Source: an uncultured Acidobacteriota bacterium
GTDB taxonomy: Bacteria; Acidobacteriota; UBA6911; RPQK01
Assembly: GCA_964421755.1 (NCBI GenBank)
Contig: CAYQYP010000061.1
Span: 24,143 to 88,142, forward strand
Reading direction: 5' to 3'
Length of the DNA: 64,000 bases
Shown: positions 18,849 to 26,200 of the stretch, piece after piece
Numbering within the stretch: position 1 is the stretch's first letter
Layout of the letters: every line of letters starts with the position of its first letter
The notes under the pieces: generated by a model
The model's database searches: none
The model's input: only the letters and a program-made list of their open reading frames with translations
Told to the model about the DNA's origin: nothing
Program-made: the position numbers and the translations under genes

Positions 18849-19697
18849 ATGCGCAAGCGAGAAGGATCAGTGGTTTGCCCGTCCTGTGGTTACCTGGTGG
18901 GCGTGAACGACGAGACCTGTTACAACTGCGGACGGAGAAACCCCGGTCTTTGGGGCTTCGCATCCTCTCTGCAGCGCCTCGGGAACATCAACTTTCCCCA
19001 GGTCGTCATTGTCACCTGCGTTGTGCTCTACATCCTGATGCTGGCTCTCGCACCCGATGAGATCGGCGGGCGGGGCATGCTGGGTTTCCTCTCGCCCAGC
19101 TCGGTCAGCCTTGTTGTTTTCGGAGCGAGCGGAGCGGTGCCGGTTTTTGGTTACGACCGCTGGTGGACTGTGCTGAGTGCCTCCTGGCTGCACGCCGGGT
19201 TACTGCACATCCTTTTCAACATGCTGTGGGTTCGTGATCTGGCTCCCGCAGTGTCGAGCCTGTACGGCTCCAGCCGGATGGTCATCATCTACATCATCTC
19301 CGGTCTCGTCGGATTCGCAGCTAGCACGTTTGCCGGTTACTACCTGGCTTTTCTCCCTTCGTTCCTGGCCGGGGCAAGGCTTACCGTCGGCGCGTCGGCG
19401 TCGATCTTTGGGCTGCTCGGTGCTCTTATCTACGCCGAACGACGCGGCGCGGGTATGTTCATCGGCCAGCAAGCCAAGATGTGGGCCATGATCCTCTTCC
19501 TGTTTGGGCTGTTCATGCCCGGGATCGACAACTGGGCTCACCTCGGTGGGCTCGCGGGTGGCTTCGGGGTCAGCGCCTGGCTCAACCCGCTCAAACGGGA
19601 GCGGTTGGAAGACACGGTAGGCGCCTTTGTCCTGGTGATTCTGAGCGCCGCGGCAATAGTGTGGTCGGTGATCACCGGGCTCCGGCTGCTGGCATAG
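18849..19697 (+). CDS. Rhomboid-family intramembrane serine protease with an N-terminal zinc-ribbon.
   Basis: CPSCGY…CYNCG zinc ribbon. Multi-TM body with the GASGA(I/V) rhomboid serine motif and a downstream AHLGGL histidine motif. Confidence 0.8.
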
Positions 19698-20956: not shown

Positions 20957-21090
20957 GGCTCGTTCTGCCATTCTCCCAGTTGTGGTTGTCTTGGCGCCTC
21001 GACGTTCGTGCAGTTTCTCTCGTTCTTGTCGAAATTTCTTTACATTCTGCTTCTCTCTGGCTAAATCTATATAGTTAGGGATGGAATACT

Positions 21091-21657
21091 ATGTCTGCCA
21101 ACGCGATTAACGAGCACGTTCGTCAGCGACTCAGGGAATTGCGTATTTCCAAGAGAATCGGCTTTCGTGAGATGTCAGAAGGCACCGGGATTCCTTCCAG
21201 CTCCTACTGTTGCATGGAATCGGGCTATTACAAGATCAATCTGGATAGCCTGCACCGGATACTCGGTGTCCTGGGAGCCAGCATCCAGGATGTGTGGCCG
21301 ACTGATTTGCCCGCCACCGAGGTCGACACGAGCCCGGTTCACCTCAGACGGATTCAGGATTTCAGGCTCAGCGAGCTGATCTCTCTCAGCCAAGCCGAAG
21401 GGGCGGCACTCTTCGCAATCGCGGGAGGTAAGTCGAAGGTCCTGATGTATCAGAACCTCAGTGATTTCCTGCTCGATCGACTCTGCCTCTATCTGGAAGA
21501 CGGTCGTTCACACGAACACGGGCTGACGCTGGCCAGGAAACGTGGCAAAACAAACTACGTTTTGTTTCTGAAAACCGAGCTCTGTCCGAGCTATGTCGGC
21601 AAGCTCGCAGAAAAATACCTGGTCATCTGGTCAAACCTGTTCGGCGACGTTCTCTGA
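21091..21657 (+). CDS. XRE-family helix-turn-helix transcriptional regulator with an uncharacterised C-terminal domain.
   Basis: N-terminal HTH (LRELRISKRIGFREMSEGTGIPSSSYCCMESG). The upstream promoter region is AT-rich, and the gene sits in a low-GC islet. Confidence 0.65.
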   Translation: MSANAINEHVRQRLRELRISKRIGFREMSEGTGIPSSSYCCMESGYYKINLDSLHRILGVLGASIQDVWPTDLPATEVDTSPVHLRRIQDFRLSELISLSQAEGAALFAIAGGKSKVLMYQNLSDFLLDRLCLYLEDGRSHEHGLTLARKRGKTNYVLFLKTELCPSYVGKLAEKYLVIWSNLFGDVL

Positions 21658-22071
21658 TCAATCCTGTGCCGACCGCAGCAGGGCCAACTCCAAACCGGAG
21701 AGGAACTGCAGGTCTCTCTTCCCGCACAGAAGTCTCGCCTTGGCGCGCAGCAGGTGGTAGCTGGTAAAGAACAGCGCCAAGAGCGGCAGGGCCGTCGGTC
21801 TCCTGAATCGGCCAAGCCTGCGCAGCGTCTGAATGTCCTCCATCAGTGCGCCTGAGTATTCCAGGAAAATGTCTTGCCTGGATGTTCGGTTCTGAAGAAT
21901 CAGTCGAACATCCGGGGCCTCCAACAGACGGAGGATATGAGCGGCGTTGAGCTCCATTTGCTCGATCCGGCGAATCTCCCTGGCATCCCAGCGCACTCCG
22001 GCGACCTGCTCGTAGGCAAGGTACACCATCAGCACGCAGAACGCGGCCACAAACGCGTAATAGTAGATCAT
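21658..22071 (-). CDS. Hypothetical protein with one N-terminal TM helix (137 aa).
   Basis: Its start overlaps the stop of the upstream 7-TM gene by 4 bp (ATGA), suggesting translational coupling. Its stop abuts the XRE stop (TGATCA). Low GC. Confidence 0.55.
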   Translation of the reverse strand: MIYYYAFVAAFCVLMVYLAYEQVAGVRWDAREIRRIEQMELNAAHILRLLEAPDVRLILQNRTSRQDIFLEYSGALMEDIQTLRRLGRFRRPTALPLLALFFTSYHLLRAKARLLCGKRDLQFLSGLELALLRSAQD

Positions 22072-22802
22072 CGTGACATAAGGCCCCTCACAGCCTTCTC
22101 AACCTCTTTGCTGACATGATCGAGGCGATCGGCAATGTCGGGACGCACGATTTTGACGGGATCGTAGTTCCAGAGGGTGTAACCAAACACGGCCAGGGCC
22201 ACGAAGTACACGAACTGCAACGAGAAAGAGAAAATCATGAAGGAGGTCTCTTTGAAGAAGTAGTTCGCGAAGTTCATGCCCTGCAGTCCCACAAGCAGGC
22301 AAATGCCCACCAGGATTCCGCGTAGATTACGGCCCGGGTCCACATCCTTTTGTCCCACAATTCGCCTCAAGACGATCACACAGGCGAGCATCTGCACAAA
22401 CAGCATGACCGCGTGATAGCGTTCGAAAATGCTCACATTCGGAAGCGAGAACACCTTCCACGCCACCGGTAAAGCGATCGTCAGGACAAGGATGACGGAC
22501 TCGATAATTCGCCGTAAAGCTAATTTGGTATTTCCAAAAACTCGGTACAGAATCTCGGTGAGAATGGCCACCTGAAAAAGAGGCGCCAAGAGGTTCGGAA
22601 TGTGATAAACAAAGTAGTATTCGCGTGATCGCCAGCCGTAAAGAATCTGAGAAACGTCAACGGAAAGTGCGGCGAGCAGCACATAGCACATGTACAGGTA
22701 AAACAGCAGATAGCGGGGAAATGTGCCGGAGTAAAGGCCTCGCACGATGACTAGCAAGAGCAACGCTTGTCCGATTGCGGGGAAGACCACGGGACCCGAC
22801 AC
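22068..22802 (-). CDS. Hypothetical polytopic membrane protein (244 aa, about 6-7 TM helices).
   Basis: Hydrophobic helices throughout, about 50% GC against about 62% in the surrounding genome, no recognised family. It is first in a two-gene operon. Confidence 0.55.
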   Translation of the reverse strand: MSGPVVFPAIGQALLLLVIVRGLYSGTFPRYLLFYLYMCYVLLAALSVDVSQILYGWRSREYYFVYHIPNLLAPLFQVAILTEILYRVFGNTKLALRRIIESVILVLTIALPVAWKVFSLPNVSIFERYHAVMLFVQMLACVIVLRRIVGQKDVDPGRNLRGILVGICLLVGLQGMNFANYFFKETSFMIFSFSLQFVYFVALAVFGYTLWNYDPVKIVRPDIADRLDHVSKEVEKAVRGLMSR

Positions 22803-22855
22803 ACGGAGAGACTAATACTATTTTACTCCAGACATCAACAGGTATCGGTTTTCAA

Positions 22856-22914
22856 GGTTTTTTGGAATTACCAAATAACTTTGTTGAAAGTCGTTTGGTA
22901 ATTCCGAAAAAAGA
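22856..22914. promoter_or_regulatory. Perfect 12-bp inverted repeat (GGAATTACCAAA N19 TTTGGTAATTCC) flanked by T6/A6 runs, in the divergent promoter region of the membrane-protein operon and the small-peptide gene. Candidate operator.
   Basis: Read directly: ttttttGGAATTACCAAAtaactttgttgaaagtcgTTTGGTAATTCCgaaaaaa. A degenerate copy (aaTTTGGTATTTCCAAAAA) lies inside the 244-aa membrane-protein gene at about 22520. Confidence 0.5.
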
Positions 22915-22962
22915 TGAACGCGATGCCCGTTAGACCGACAATCATTCGTGAAGGAGGAGCGG

Positions 22963-23148
22963 ATGATTTATCTAATTGTTTCCTTGTGGATGATGTTCGG
23001 AGGATACTCCGACACCGATTCGCGCTACCAGGAGTTTCAACAGCGCCCACGGCCGGAGTTGAAAGTCCCGAGCGGGCCCCCGCCGCAATTCCACTGCTGC
23101 GGCCCAGTTGCGCCGCCACCACCGCCGCCGCCGCCGGCCGAACGGTAG
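22963..23148 (+). CDS. Small membrane peptide (61 aa) with an N-terminal TM helix and a Cys-Cys plus poly-proline C-terminus (…QFHCCGPVAPPPPPPPPAER).
   Basis: Very strong SD (GAAGGAGGAgcggATG) in a low-GC context. The poly-Pro tail is unusual. Confidence 0.45.
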   Translation: MIYLIVSLWMMFGGYSDTDSRYQEFQQRPRPELKVPSGPPPQFHCCGPVAPPPPPPPPAER

Positions 23149-23194
23149 AATCGGCACTGAACTGCGCTGCCAGAAGTTGCCTGCTGGCAAACGG

Positions 23195-23536
23195 CTAGAT
23201 GATTTTCTGCAACAGCGACGAATACTGAGCCGCTTGTTGAGGCAGGGGTATGGTTCGAGTCGGCAGGAGCGTTTCCAGGAGGACGGTGATCCATTCACGA
23301 GTCGTTTCGATTCGGCTGAATCCCAACAGCAGTTTCGGGCCGTGGTTGATCAGTTCGTAATCCAGGATGCTTCCGAAGATCGGCTCACTCTCGCCCTTCA
23401 GAACGACGGCGAAATCAATCCGTTTGGAGCCGGAGTCAATCTGAAAGCTCAGCAGTTGACCATACGCAGCCATCTGTGATCGGATTGCCCGCTCGGCGCC
23501 CCATGAGAGCGCCTGATCCTTCAGTTTTCGAAACAT
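23195..23536 (-). CDS. Hypothetical protein (113 aa).
   Basis: Open frame with globular-protein-like composition. No family recognised. A hairpin (CTGCCAGaagtTGCCTGCTGGCA) lies downstream. Confidence 0.4.
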   Translation of the reverse strand: MFRKLKDQALSWGAERAIRSQMAAYGQLLSFQIDSGSKRIDFAVVLKGESEPIFGSILDYELINHGPKLLLGFSRIETTREWITVLLETLLPTRTIPLPQQAAQYSSLLQKII

Positions 23537-23567
23537 CTGTGAAAAGTCGCGTGATTAGACAGCAGAG

Positions 23568-24708: not shown

Positions 24709-26097
24709 CTACTCGGTTCGGCTGTTGTTGGTTTTTCCGGTATTACCGGTCGTCCCGGTATTGCCGGTGGTGCTGTCGGTTCCGGTCGTACCCGTATTCG
24801 AGTTCTCCATGCTCCCGGTCCCGGTGGTGCCTTCATTGCTCATCGTGCCGCTGGTACCCATCTGGTTTCCGGTCGTCGCCTCGGCCGACTGGCCCATGAT
24901 ACCCCGGTTGACCATGATTCGGACTTCGACACGGCGATTCTGCTTCCGTCCGTCGCGTGTGCCGTTGTCGGCAACCGGCTGCAGTTCTCCGTAGCCGAAT
25001 GGGACCACGATTCTGCGGAGCGGAACGTTGTGTTTCTCGGCGAGGTAACGGACCACTGCGTCGGCCCTGCGCTGGCTGAGCCGGCGGTTGTAGTCTTCTG
25101 AGCCCTCTGCCGATGCGAAACCGGTTACCTCGATGATGTAGCCCTTTTCATTGTTGATGTGCTGGGCTATCTCGTCCAGGTTCTCCTGAGCTTCGGGGGA
25201 CAGCTTGGCGCTGGCCACTTTGAAGTTCACCGTGACACTCTGGCGGACATCGTAATTGTCCAGCGAAACGATCCGCTCGTTCGCTGCATTGACCCCGGTC
25301 ACGGCCTCGTCGGCGCGGTTTTGTGCAGCACCGGCCGCGCTGACGGCCCGGTCGGCTGTCTCCTGGGCGGCCACTGCGCCCCCTCGGGCGGCGTTCGACA
25401 CGCGGCCCAGTTCGTCCAACTGTCCGGACATCCGCTGGGCGTTCTCACGTGCTTCGGCAAGGTCTTTTTCGACTGGAGTGACCCGGGTCTCGATCGAGTA
25501 GGCCGTCTCGAAGTCATCATTCTTGAACTTGATCTTCTCGGCCACGAGATTGCCGGAGCTGTCGCCCTGGCCTTCCACTTCCACCCTCAATCCCGGAAGC
25601 AGGTTCTCGGCCGAATAGCGCTTGGCTCCCCGGAAGGGATTGGACTTTTTCTCTTTGATCTCGGTCGAGGAGTTAACCATGACGTTAACTCTCTGGCCGT
25701 CGTTCGTGACAACGGTGACCTGGTCTCCCTGGCGACCCGCCACGAATCCCTTGATTTCGGTTTCCTCGCCCGCGGCAATGGCGCTCAGCTGAGATCCTGC
25801 TGTCGACTGGGAAGACGTGGCGCCTGCCTGTGAGTCGCCAGACTGATCGCCTGTGTTCTGATCGGGCACGGGCTGCCCATCAGTGGCGGTGGTTGAATCA
25901 GTTCCGGTCGAGTCGGATGGCTGACTGTCCTGGCTACTAGGATCCTGCTGGTCGGGAGTCGTCTGTTCCATCGTCTGCCGATCTTCGTTTTGCGAGGAGT
26001 TGGCCGACGGGTCCTGAGCGAAAGCTGGTGCCGCGATCAGAGCCGCGAGGACAACAGCCACCATCCATCGTGACATTGTGTGTACTAAACTTTTCAT
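24709..26097 (-). CDS. OmpA-family protein (C-terminal OmpA/MotB peptidoglycan-binding domain) with extended low-complexity S/T/G/N-rich tails.
   Basis: Signal peptide MSRWMVAVVLAALIAAPAFA. OmpA_C motifs (TGFASAEGSEDYNRRLSQRRADAVVRYL…NRRVEV). Start taken at the ATG at 26097. Confidence 0.75.
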   Translation of the reverse strand: MKSLVHTMSRWMVAVVLAALIAAPAFAQDPSANSSQNEDRQTMEQTTPDQQDPSSQDSQPSDSTGTDSTTATDGQPVPDQNTGDQSGDSQAGATSSQSTAGSQLSAIAAGEETEIKGFVAGRQGDQVTVVTNDGQRVNVMVNSSTEIKEKKSNPFRGAKRYSAENLLPGLRVEVEGQGDSSGNLVAEKIKFKNDDFETAYSIETRVTPVEKDLAEARENAQRMSGQLDELGRVSNAARGGAVAAQETADRAVSAAGAAQNRADEAVTGVNAANERIVSLDNYDVRQSVTVNFKVASAKLSPEAQENLDEIAQHINNEKGYIIEVTGFASAEGSEDYNRRLSQRRADAVVRYLAEKHNVPLRRIVVPFGYGELQPVADNGTRDGRKQNRRVEVRIMVNRGIMGQSAEATTGNQMGTSGTMSNEGTTGTGSMENSNTGTTGTDSTTGNTGTTGNTGKTNNSRTE

Positions 26098-26200
26098 TGA
26101 ACCCTCCTGCTTATCCCTATCCTGTTGCTCAATTACAGAAAACATGGCAGCCAAACCGGACACTGCCTCGTGTCCGTTTGTGCCTAGCTGCCAGTCGAAT

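Follow-up and report, generated by a model that had tools for sequence, protein, structure and literature searches.

Results

Organization of the locus

The DNA studied here is a 64,000-nt stretch from an uncultured Acidobacteriota bacterium (contig CAYQYP010000061.1 of assembly GCA_964421755.1), hereafter called the window. Between lysC and a VWA gene (TIGR03436) lie five genes, which encode a regulator with an XRE-type helix-turn-helix (HTH) domain (XRE188), a membrane protein (p137), a protein with seven transmembrane (TM) helices (p244, a 7TM protein), a 61-residue peptide and a soluble protein (p113). An inverted repeat separates the p244 gene from the divergent peptide gene. A preliminary description of this DNA had listed these elements, and all of them, including the ATGA overlap of the two membrane-protein genes, were found in the list of open reading frames (ORFs) and in the sequence (Table 1). 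The first four genes travel together and are the main subject of this work.

Table 1. Positions of genes and sites in the window and in the related loci (designated by L numbers).
Feature	Locus	Position	Strand	Remarks
XRE188	window	21091-21657	+	188-residue regulator, convergent with p137
p137	window	21658-22071	-	137-residue membrane partner; start overlaps p244 stop (ATGA)
p244	window	22068-22802	-	244 residues, GTG start; stop overlaps p137 start (ATGA)
61-residue peptide	window	22963-23148	+	supported by ORF list, alignment of relatives and dN/dS
Shine-Dalgarno sequence of peptide gene	window	22951-22958		AAGGAGGA, ending 4 nt before ATG
S1, operator-like site	window	22861-22875	none	TTTGGAATTACCAAA; divergent p244/peptide promoter region; position kept in L003, L006-9 and L028
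S2, operator-like site	window	22894-22908	none	TTTGGTAATTCCGAA; 33 bp centre-to-centre from S1; position kept in relatives
S3, operator-like site	window	22524-22538	none	TTTGGTATTTCCAAA; in p244 coding sequence, codons for FGNTK; about 330 bp from S1/S2
Inverted repeat, first arm	window	22864-22875		GGAATTACCAAA
Inverted repeat, second arm	window	22894-22905		TTTGGTAATTCC
Candidate p244 promoter	window	22809-22838	-	TTGATG, 18 nt, TAGTCT; ends 6 nt before GTG; from conserved blocks in the intergenic alignment
p113	window	23195-23536	-	113-residue soluble protein; last gene of the OmpA-VWA-p113 string
OmpA-family protein	window	24709-26100	-
Rhomboid protease	window	18849-19697	+	directly upstream of lysC
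p244-p137 spacer with third site	L007	12313-12489
p244-p137 spacer with third site	L008	8597-8804
p244-p137 spacer with third site	L009	8290-8511
p244-p137 spacer with third site	L028	8736-8920
Best operator-like site	L031	6779-6793
272-residue XRE-like regulator	L024	9748-10566	-	equivalents in L050-L114

In XRE188, a disordered linker (residues 72-79) joins the XRE-type HTH (3-68) to a C-terminal domain (82-187) with the topology alpha-beta-beta-alpha-beta-beta-alpha. The N-terminus is recognisable as a five-helix Cro/C1-type HTH domain (PF01381, HTH_3), and the modelled C-terminal domain appears to be Roadblock/LC7- or GAF-like. The protein has no TPR domain and is too short to hold one, which sets it apart from RRNPP regulators. 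Its family comprises at least 128 clusters, all of about 190 residues, and the organism-named ones are from Acidobacteria.

In p137, a TM helix (residues 1-21) is followed by a helical, charged region, then by another hydrophobic stretch (94-108) and by a basic, highly conserved tail (CG.RDL.FLSGLELA..RS). The protein had previously been described as single-TM; the second stretch makes the number uncertain. Wherever close-clade loci extend far enough, the gene directly downstream of that for the 7TM protein is p137.

Searches of Pfam, NCBIfam, PADLOC and PHROGs gave no match for p137, p244, the peptide or p113. Sequence-profile searches of the PDB with the proteins of the locus returned weak HTH matches only, and PHROGs likewise returned HTH matches only. 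The membrane proteins thus matched no family in these five resources; the preliminary description had likewise recognised none.

Base composition and conservation of the locus

The 2-kb bin 21001-23000 has a GC content of 0.522, the minimum of the window, and its flanking bins range from 0.59 to 0.61. A dip is therefore present, smaller than the drop from about 62% to about 50% reported earlier. The lowest 400-bp bin (22600-22999, GC 0.458) also falls within the locus. At third codon positions, the GC content of the five ORFs (0.66-0.75) is that of the long ORFs of the window (0.67 ± 0.07). At second codon positions it is 0.335 in the hydrophobic p244, and intergenic DNA has a GC content of 0.41 and 0.46. 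The dip can thus be attributed to low second-position GC in p244 and to AT-rich intergenic DNA. No tRNA was found in the window, and no integrase or flanking repeat. A search for known RNA elements found none, and the predicted fold of the spacer between the peptide and p113 genes was not unusually stable (z = -0.48).

Related loci were obtained via LysC and via exact-protein look-ups. In metagenome-assembled genomes (MAGs) of Acidobacteriota, the genes follow one syntenic order: lysC, XRE, p137, p244, peptide, p113, VWA, OmpA, sigma-54 regulator. This string was found in L003, L004 and L006 (80-95% identity), in L007, L008 and L009 (67-69% LysC identity) and, apart from p113, in L028-30. Across L003-L009 and L028-30, LysC identity was 67-94%. 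Down to the lower value, every relative had the block at the same site, flanked by lysC and the VWA gene; MAGs with 52-57% LysC identity did not have it. One of these loci, L004 (ERZ25039596 contig_50778), has lysC, XRE, p137, beta-lactamase and other genes split into pieces. Its variant operator and peptide sequences are not to be trusted, because the assembly looks like a frameshift-rich, long-read one.

All five ORFs had ratios of non-synonymous to synonymous substitution rates (dN/dS) of 0.05-0.26 in close pairs, indicating purifying selection, and the fastest-evolving gene of the locus was that of the peptide.

The genes were also detected in two other neighbourhoods. In L031 they adjoin genes for LexA, a PDZ protein and an ECF sigma factor, and in L033 they adjoin the suf operon on a 5.3-Mb contig. 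Both loci carry XRE188, p137, p244 and the peptide without p113. Therefore the true unit consists of these four genes, which travel together. Altogether, the locus is an old, vertically inherited, lineage-specific cassette of Acidobacteriota and not a foreign islet.

The 7TM protein and its family

The AlphaFold model of p244 (pLDDT 84, pTM 0.76) contains seven TM helices and a C-terminal cytoplasmic helix (residues 221-243); the signature motif GRNLRG lies at the cytoplasmic start of TM6. Lysine plus arginine averaged 1.9, 1.6 and 2.5 in the cytoplasmic loops and 5.7 in the tail, against 0 in the periplasmic N-terminus and 0.7, 0.8 and 0.7 in the periplasmic loops. These counts indicate an N-out/C-in topology. 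Conservation was higher in the inner than in the outer halves of the protein (p = 0.002). The cytoplasmic side holds 17 of the 25 most conserved positions, including R21, RYxxFYxY, GRNLRG and W211. An alignment of 25 family sequences had ten invariant residues (R21, Y31, F34, Y62, G157, N159, G162, G166, Y199 and W211), and no invariant Cys, His, Ser, Asp or Glu.

The fold was compared with known structures using Foldseek. No match reached an E-value of 1e-3 or below, TM-scores did not exceed 0.52, and microbial rhodopsins scored like G-protein-coupled receptors (GPCRs), to which p244 showed 5-15% identity in structural alignments. The model is thus consistent with a generic GPCR/rhodopsin-like 7TM bundle. 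Neither a Pfam match nor a GPCR family signature was found for p244, and the module holds no GTPase gene. TM7 (188-209, SFMIFSFSLQFVYFVALAVFGY) has no lysine, the residue that binds retinal in microbial rhodopsins, none is conserved there in the family, and the Pfam model Bac_rhodopsin was not matched. Finally, the catalytic sets of AgrB (His/Cys), CAAX/Abi (EExxxR, FxxxH and HxxxN), rhomboid (Ser/His) and exosortase-type (Cys/Arg/His) enzymes are not conserved in p244, and with no Pfam or NCBIfam match it cannot be assigned to any of them.

A single-sequence, word-indexed search with p244 returned only 6 near-identical clusters. The resulting picture of an ORFan was rejected as an artefact of the 5-mer index, since profile searches recovered 29 clusters, and an exhaustive hidden Markov model search then recovered 1,392 (at 50% identity) at E ≤ 1e-3, with 134 at ≤ 1e-30. 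A metagenome scan added 80 loci. Among the family members tested, no Pfam or NCBIfam model was matched. All organism-named records of the family are from Acidobacteriota, and cluster look-ups for its distant members returned "hypothetical protein" only.

The synonymous substitution rate of p244 was below that of its neighbours, at 0.38 against 0.49-0.68 between the window and L003, and 0.51 against 0.93-1.9 between the window and L006. This hints at a constraint on silent sites, perhaps the embedded site S3 or mRNA structure.

A small proline-rich peptide is encoded ahead of the 7TM gene

The peptide starts with a hydrophobic, signal-peptide-like N-terminus (MIYLIVSLWMMFGG). The linker that follows is variable; CCGP, which comes next, is invariant and leads into a proline run and a charged C-terminus, with FHCCGPVAPPPPPPPPAER as the last residues. 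The Shine-Dalgarno sequence and the ATG are kept in all relatives in the intergenic alignment. The window and L003 differ in this gene by 18 synonymous and 9 non-synonymous changes (dN/dS 0.11), and values of 0.26-0.49 were obtained among L007-9. The same design recurs in L031 (MFNVALLLLSLFVWSGSG...DDCCPVPPPPQE) and in L033 (MIYRILLALTLLIPFVFA...ACCGPGCPPW...).

The linkage of peptide and 7TM genes was counted over a non-redundant set of loci, each with 300 bp or more of DNA upstream. An ORF with the motif CC.P..PP was found divergently upstream in 14/14 close-clade 7TM loci, and the motif had no match in 93 kb of control DNA. In the distant clade of the 7TM family (24-30% identity), 47 of 48 loci had a co-directional upstream ORF with DG[GTSAV].P.P, and the 48th had a variant of the motif. 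Overall, a small proline-rich ORF preceded the 7TM gene in 61 of 62 loci. Neither motif was found in about 183 kb of downstream control sequence.

The class of motif differs between the two groups: close relatives have CC(G)P followed by a proline run, and distant ones have ADGGxPxPxP, often tandemly repeated. The distant-clade peptides display textbook-looking signal peptides (for instance MSKMRVSFVLSLVVLLAAVAVFSG); they either end in ...LTADGTDPQPPPSPFPW... or contain 2-7 tandem repeats, such as ADGGKPLPDPW or ADGGRPYPTPP. Handling of Hg or Cu through the vicinal cysteine pair was also considered. It was rejected, because distant-clade peptides have DGG in place of CC; moreover, the CC of the XRE recognition helix is not kept outside the window clade.

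Gene order in the distant clade

In the distant clade, the genes follow the order peptide, 7TM protein, an overlapping bitopic partner of 173-192 residues, a 149-residue protein and a convergent gene for a 272-residue XRE-like HTH protein. This order was observed in 38 of the 42 loci with enough downstream DNA. Comparisons by hhalign gave probabilities below 3% for p137 against a 183-residue partner, for XRE188 against the 272-residue regulator and for the 149-residue protein against both. As partners and regulators are not detectably homologous, the parallel between the clades is architectural only: they share the 7TM protein, the way the peptide is built and the arrangement of the genes. Family scans with the distant-clade counterparts of p137, p244 and the peptide gave no match.

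Two further features of these loci were noted. The 272-residue regulator is 75-96% identical between loci, far above the adjoining 7TM protein and peptide, and the 149-residue protein between partner and regulator is itself conserved.

Operator-like sites and promoters

Both arms of the inverted repeat are perfect over 12 bp, as described before; the spacer between them is 18 nt and not 19. Each arm belongs to a 15-mer that is itself palindromic (TTTGG-N5-CCAAA), and these two 15-mers are the sites S1 and S2. Perfect copies of TTTGGN5CCAAA occur twice in the whole window, both at this locus, and four copies are found when up to one mismatch is accepted, three of them here. With a weight matrix built from the sites of this and related loci, those of the window included, S1-S3 scored 24-26.5 bits, and the next best match in the window 11.7 bits.

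In the relatives, both spacer sites are found at conserved positions, but their inner five bases are not complementary to each other. What is conserved is therefore two dimer sites rather than a single long palindrome. A 12-N18-12 palindrome as functional unit, which corresponds to the single dimeric-regulator operator proposed earlier, was accordingly abandoned: the relatives keep only the two separate 15-bp palindromes. The repeat was also considered as an intrinsic terminator. This was rejected, since the T-runs come before the stem whichever strand is read, and the repeat was not among the hits of the terminator scan.

The third site was always present among the relatives. It lies within the p244 gene in the window clade, and in the spacer between p244 and p137 in L007-9 and L028, where the two genes do not overlap and are separated by 180-220 nt. 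The p244 proteins of these four loci do not contain FGNTK, yet the site is kept in their spacer of about 200 nt. Thus, the conserved thing seems to be the DNA site and not the FGNTK motif.

Two loci outside the matrix were also scored. In L031, a perfect TTTGGTATTTCCAAA lies upstream of the XRE gene (24.5 bits), and both the spacer and the 7TM coding sequence contain weaker sites. The corresponding sites of L033 scored 15.5 bits (spacer) and 14.5 bits (coding sequence). In loci without an XRE188 homologue and the module, no site exceeded 11 bits. It is this co-occurrence, and it only, that points to S1-S3 as putative targets of XRE188. The best site of L031 is located between the XRE gene and a divergent gene for a stand-alone response regulator, a placement that suggests autoregulation of the XRE gene in that locus. 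No comparable site was found ahead of XRE188 in the window (20957-21090).

The position of the candidate p244 promoter would tentatively predict a leaderless or near-leaderless mRNA.

Neighbouring genes

The p113 gene starts 32 nt past the stop of the VWA gene. It is kept with the VWA gene in most syntenic relatives, and is not present in L028-30, L031 and L033. The protein had no family match and no PDB match. Thus p113, which had been counted as a member of the cassette, belongs to the VWA operon and lies outside the module.

The OmpA-family protein encoded at the head of the same string has long low-complexity regions rich in S/T/D/Q and in T/G/N, a DUF5666 domain and an alanine-zipper segment. 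The OmpA-VWA-p113 string adjoins a pair of genes for a sigma-54 response regulator and a histidine kinase, and the synteny extends to the relatives. On the other side of the locus, the rhomboid protease has an N-terminal zinc-ribbon. The position of its gene is constant in all syntenic relatives reaching that far.

Discussion

A possible peptide-sensing membrane circuit

From anatomy and gene context only, we infer that the module may be a self-regulating circuit in which a membrane protein senses a peptide, in an autocrine, quorum or envelope-state mode. We give this interpretation a probability of about 0.4. The peptide would be exported, or would be anchored in the membrane with its tail outside. 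Its CCGP-polyproline tail would then engage the variable outer face of p244. The conserved cytoplasmic face of p244 (R21, RYxxFYxY, GRNLRG and W211) and the bitopic p137 would pass the state of the receptor on to XRE188, probably through the Roadblock/GAF-like C-terminal domain, for instance by retention at the membrane or release from it. Dimers of XRE188 would occupy the three operators, possibly with looping, and would set the transcription of the peptide gene and of the p244-p137 operon, thereby forming a feedback loop.

Several observations weigh against such a circuit. A homologue of XRE188 in L034 stands without the rest of the module, and the partner and the regulator of the distant clade have no detectable homology to p137 and XRE188. 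In the window clade, the N-terminus of the peptide lacks a basic n-region and counts no more than about 13 hydrophobic residues, so that export and membrane anchoring both fit. Since the fold match of p244 is generic, the label "receptor" draws only on topology, conservation pattern and gene context. Moreover, a scan for consensus promoters returned no sigma-70 promoter at its thresholds.

A bolder version of the peptide-sensing circuit concerns the whole family. The p244 family and the proline-rich peptides might form a bacterial peptide-ligand/7TM-receptor system, with a secreted autoinducer or envelope signal made from a single-motif or tandem-repeat precursor, and a stand-alone receptor of GPCR fold that would read it on the outside and, together with a bitopic partner, would control an HTH factor on the inside. 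We consider this general form unlikely.

Other explanations

The alternative that survives best is that p244 and p137 form a transporter, a channel or a complex for envelope maintenance, with the peptide as an anchored accessory subunit similar to small proteins of the AcrZ, KdpF, CydX or MgrB type, XRE188 as a local repressor and no peptide sensing. A short hydrophobic N-terminus without a basic n-region could indeed remain in the membrane. With its single copy and vertical inheritance, the module resembles a housekeeping accessory, the fold match of the 7TM protein is generic, and local XRE repressors with palindromic operators are common. However, the canonical, cleavable-looking signal peptides and the 2-7 repeats of distant-clade peptides fit a stoichiometric subunit poorly. 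The most conserved positions of p244 lie at the cytoplasmic face and not along a pore or substrate path, and a convergent HTH gene is retained in both clades. We rate this explanation as unlikely.

The Cys/Pro-rich peptide could also be a secreted, bacteriocin-like antimicrobial, from which p244 and p137 would protect the producer while XRE188 controls production. Proline-rich antimicrobial peptides exist; the peptide looks secreted, evolves faster than its neighbours and lies beside multi-pass membrane proteins and an XRE regulator. Yet no gene for export or processing (ABC-C39, maturase) occurred in any context seen, no relative was found in viral contigs, and neither CAAX/Abi nor any other immunity family was matched. 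The position of the locus is stable over deep divergence, whereas bacteriocin loci are usually patchy. Furthermore, the peptide gene is divergent from the supposed immunity operon, with operators in common, and tandem-repeat precursors like those of the distant clade are atypical of bacteriocins. We regard an antimicrobial role as distinctly unlikely.

Alternatively, p244 may be the machine that matures or exports the peptide, in the manner of AgrB/AgrD or a sortase, acting at the [CC/DGG]-G-P junction with the help of p137. The tight linkage of peptide and 7TM genes would fit, as would the location of the conserved motif at or near the C-terminus, or its tandem repetition as in multi-core precursors; AgrB is itself a small multi-pass membrane protein encoded beside its own peptide. 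But the p244 family has no invariant Cys, His, Ser, Asp or Glu to build a catalytic centre, no AgrB, CAAX, rhomboid or exosortase model was matched, and conservation is biased to the cytoplasmic face although an exported peptide would be processed outside. A maturation machine thus seems very unlikely. Altogether, the evidence leans against the ideas of bacteriocin immunity and of peptide processing that had been put forward in the preliminary description.

Finally, a recently acquired low-GC islet with an abortive-infection or defence cassette, proposed earlier from the GC dip and from an XRE regulator beside membrane proteins of no recognised family, is hardly credible in view of the normal third-position GC, the source of the dip, the fixed site down to 67% LysC identity, the lack of tRNA, integrase and flanking repeat, the single weak, sub-threshold HTH match in PADLOC (E = 0.0046), the housekeeping neighbours (lysC, rhomboid, suf, LexA) and, as regards the suggested prophage link, the absence of relatives among 2.9 million viral contigs.

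Comparison with known systems

The part of the module made of regulator and operators is an ordinary XRE arrangement, close to controller (C) proteins in fold and site layout. C.AhdI, C.BclI, C.Esp1396I and the lambda CI/P22 c2 repressors are all XRE regulators of paired palindromes; XRE188 adds a 105-residue alpha/beta domain that C proteins lack. C proteins and phage repressors govern restriction-modification or prophage genes, whereas the candidate targets here are an operon for membrane proteins and a peptide gene.

RRNPP systems of Firmicutes (Rgg/SHP, ComR/ComS, PrgX/cCF10, PlcR/PapR) also link a peptide to an HTH regulator. In these, a re-imported peptide is bound by a TPR domain, which XRE188 does not have. 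The present module, which belongs to Acidobacteriota, always places a 7TM protein and a bitopic partner in between, and no genes for an Opp-type importer or for Eep/PptAB-type processing are linked.

Seven-helix, N-out membrane modules resembling p244 are found in MASE4 and 7TMR-DISM, which are presumed input domains. The MASE4 domains of E. coli DgcT and CdgI are of this type, and their models appear GPCR-like in structure searches (PMC10760455). MASE4 and 7TMR-DISM are fused to cytoplasmic output domains (GGDEF and others), whereas p244 is a stand-alone protein of 244 residues with only a helix-8-like tail and no Pfam match; its partner is a separate protein, and a peptide and an HTH regulator go with the pair.

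The Agr system resembles the module in that the gene of a small polytopic membrane protein adjoins one for a small peptide, whose N-terminus associates with the membrane and whose core contains Cys. However, the catalytic His and Cys of AgrB have no counterpart in p244, which matches no Pfam model, the output passes through the AgrCA two-component system instead of an XRE regulator, and distant-clade peptides have no Cys at all. Yeast alpha-factor and Ste2 offer an analogy only: in the distant clade, a precursor with a signal peptide and tandem copies of a motif is genetically tied to a 7TM protein of GPCR topology. Homology, a G protein and Kex2-type sites are all lacking here, and the peptide of the window has a single motif. 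MgrB-PhoQ, SafA and AcrZ are also peptides of about 50-60 residues with one hydrophobic segment, beside a membrane protein that may be modulated. They differ in having no conserved Pro-rich/Cys motif, no link to a 7TM family and no secreted precursors with tandem repeats.

The literature search found no description of this module. According to Pfam 2025, NCBIfam 2026, PADLOC, PHROGs, the PDB and the literature, the peptide family, the 7TM family and the partner belong to no described family. Since it does not show the defining features of RRNPP, Agr, CAAX/Abi, rhodopsin, GPCR (at the sequence level) and defence systems, the module stands outside the known kinds of system, and its function is read from its anatomy and context only.

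Significance

Acidobacteriota are among the most abundant bacteria in soil. To our knowledge, hardly anything has been learned of the ways in which they perceive one another or their environment. This work resolves an anonymous low-GC patch into a gene module with defined parts, seen again in many metagenomic loci, together with a 7TM family of about 1,400 clusters (at 50% identity) that is near-obligately linked to small proline-rich, signal-peptide-like proteins. The operator motif could also serve in reporter assays. Should the function turn out to be more ordinary, such as a membrane complex or an immunity pair, a context will still have been gained for one peptide family and for three protein families not described before. 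If it is true that the peptide is the ligand of the 7TM protein, the module would represent a peptide-receptor pathway without a described bacterial counterpart, so far in Acidobacteriota-labelled records only. Such a pathway could be tested directly, as this work names its predicted ligand, receptor, regulator and DNA target.

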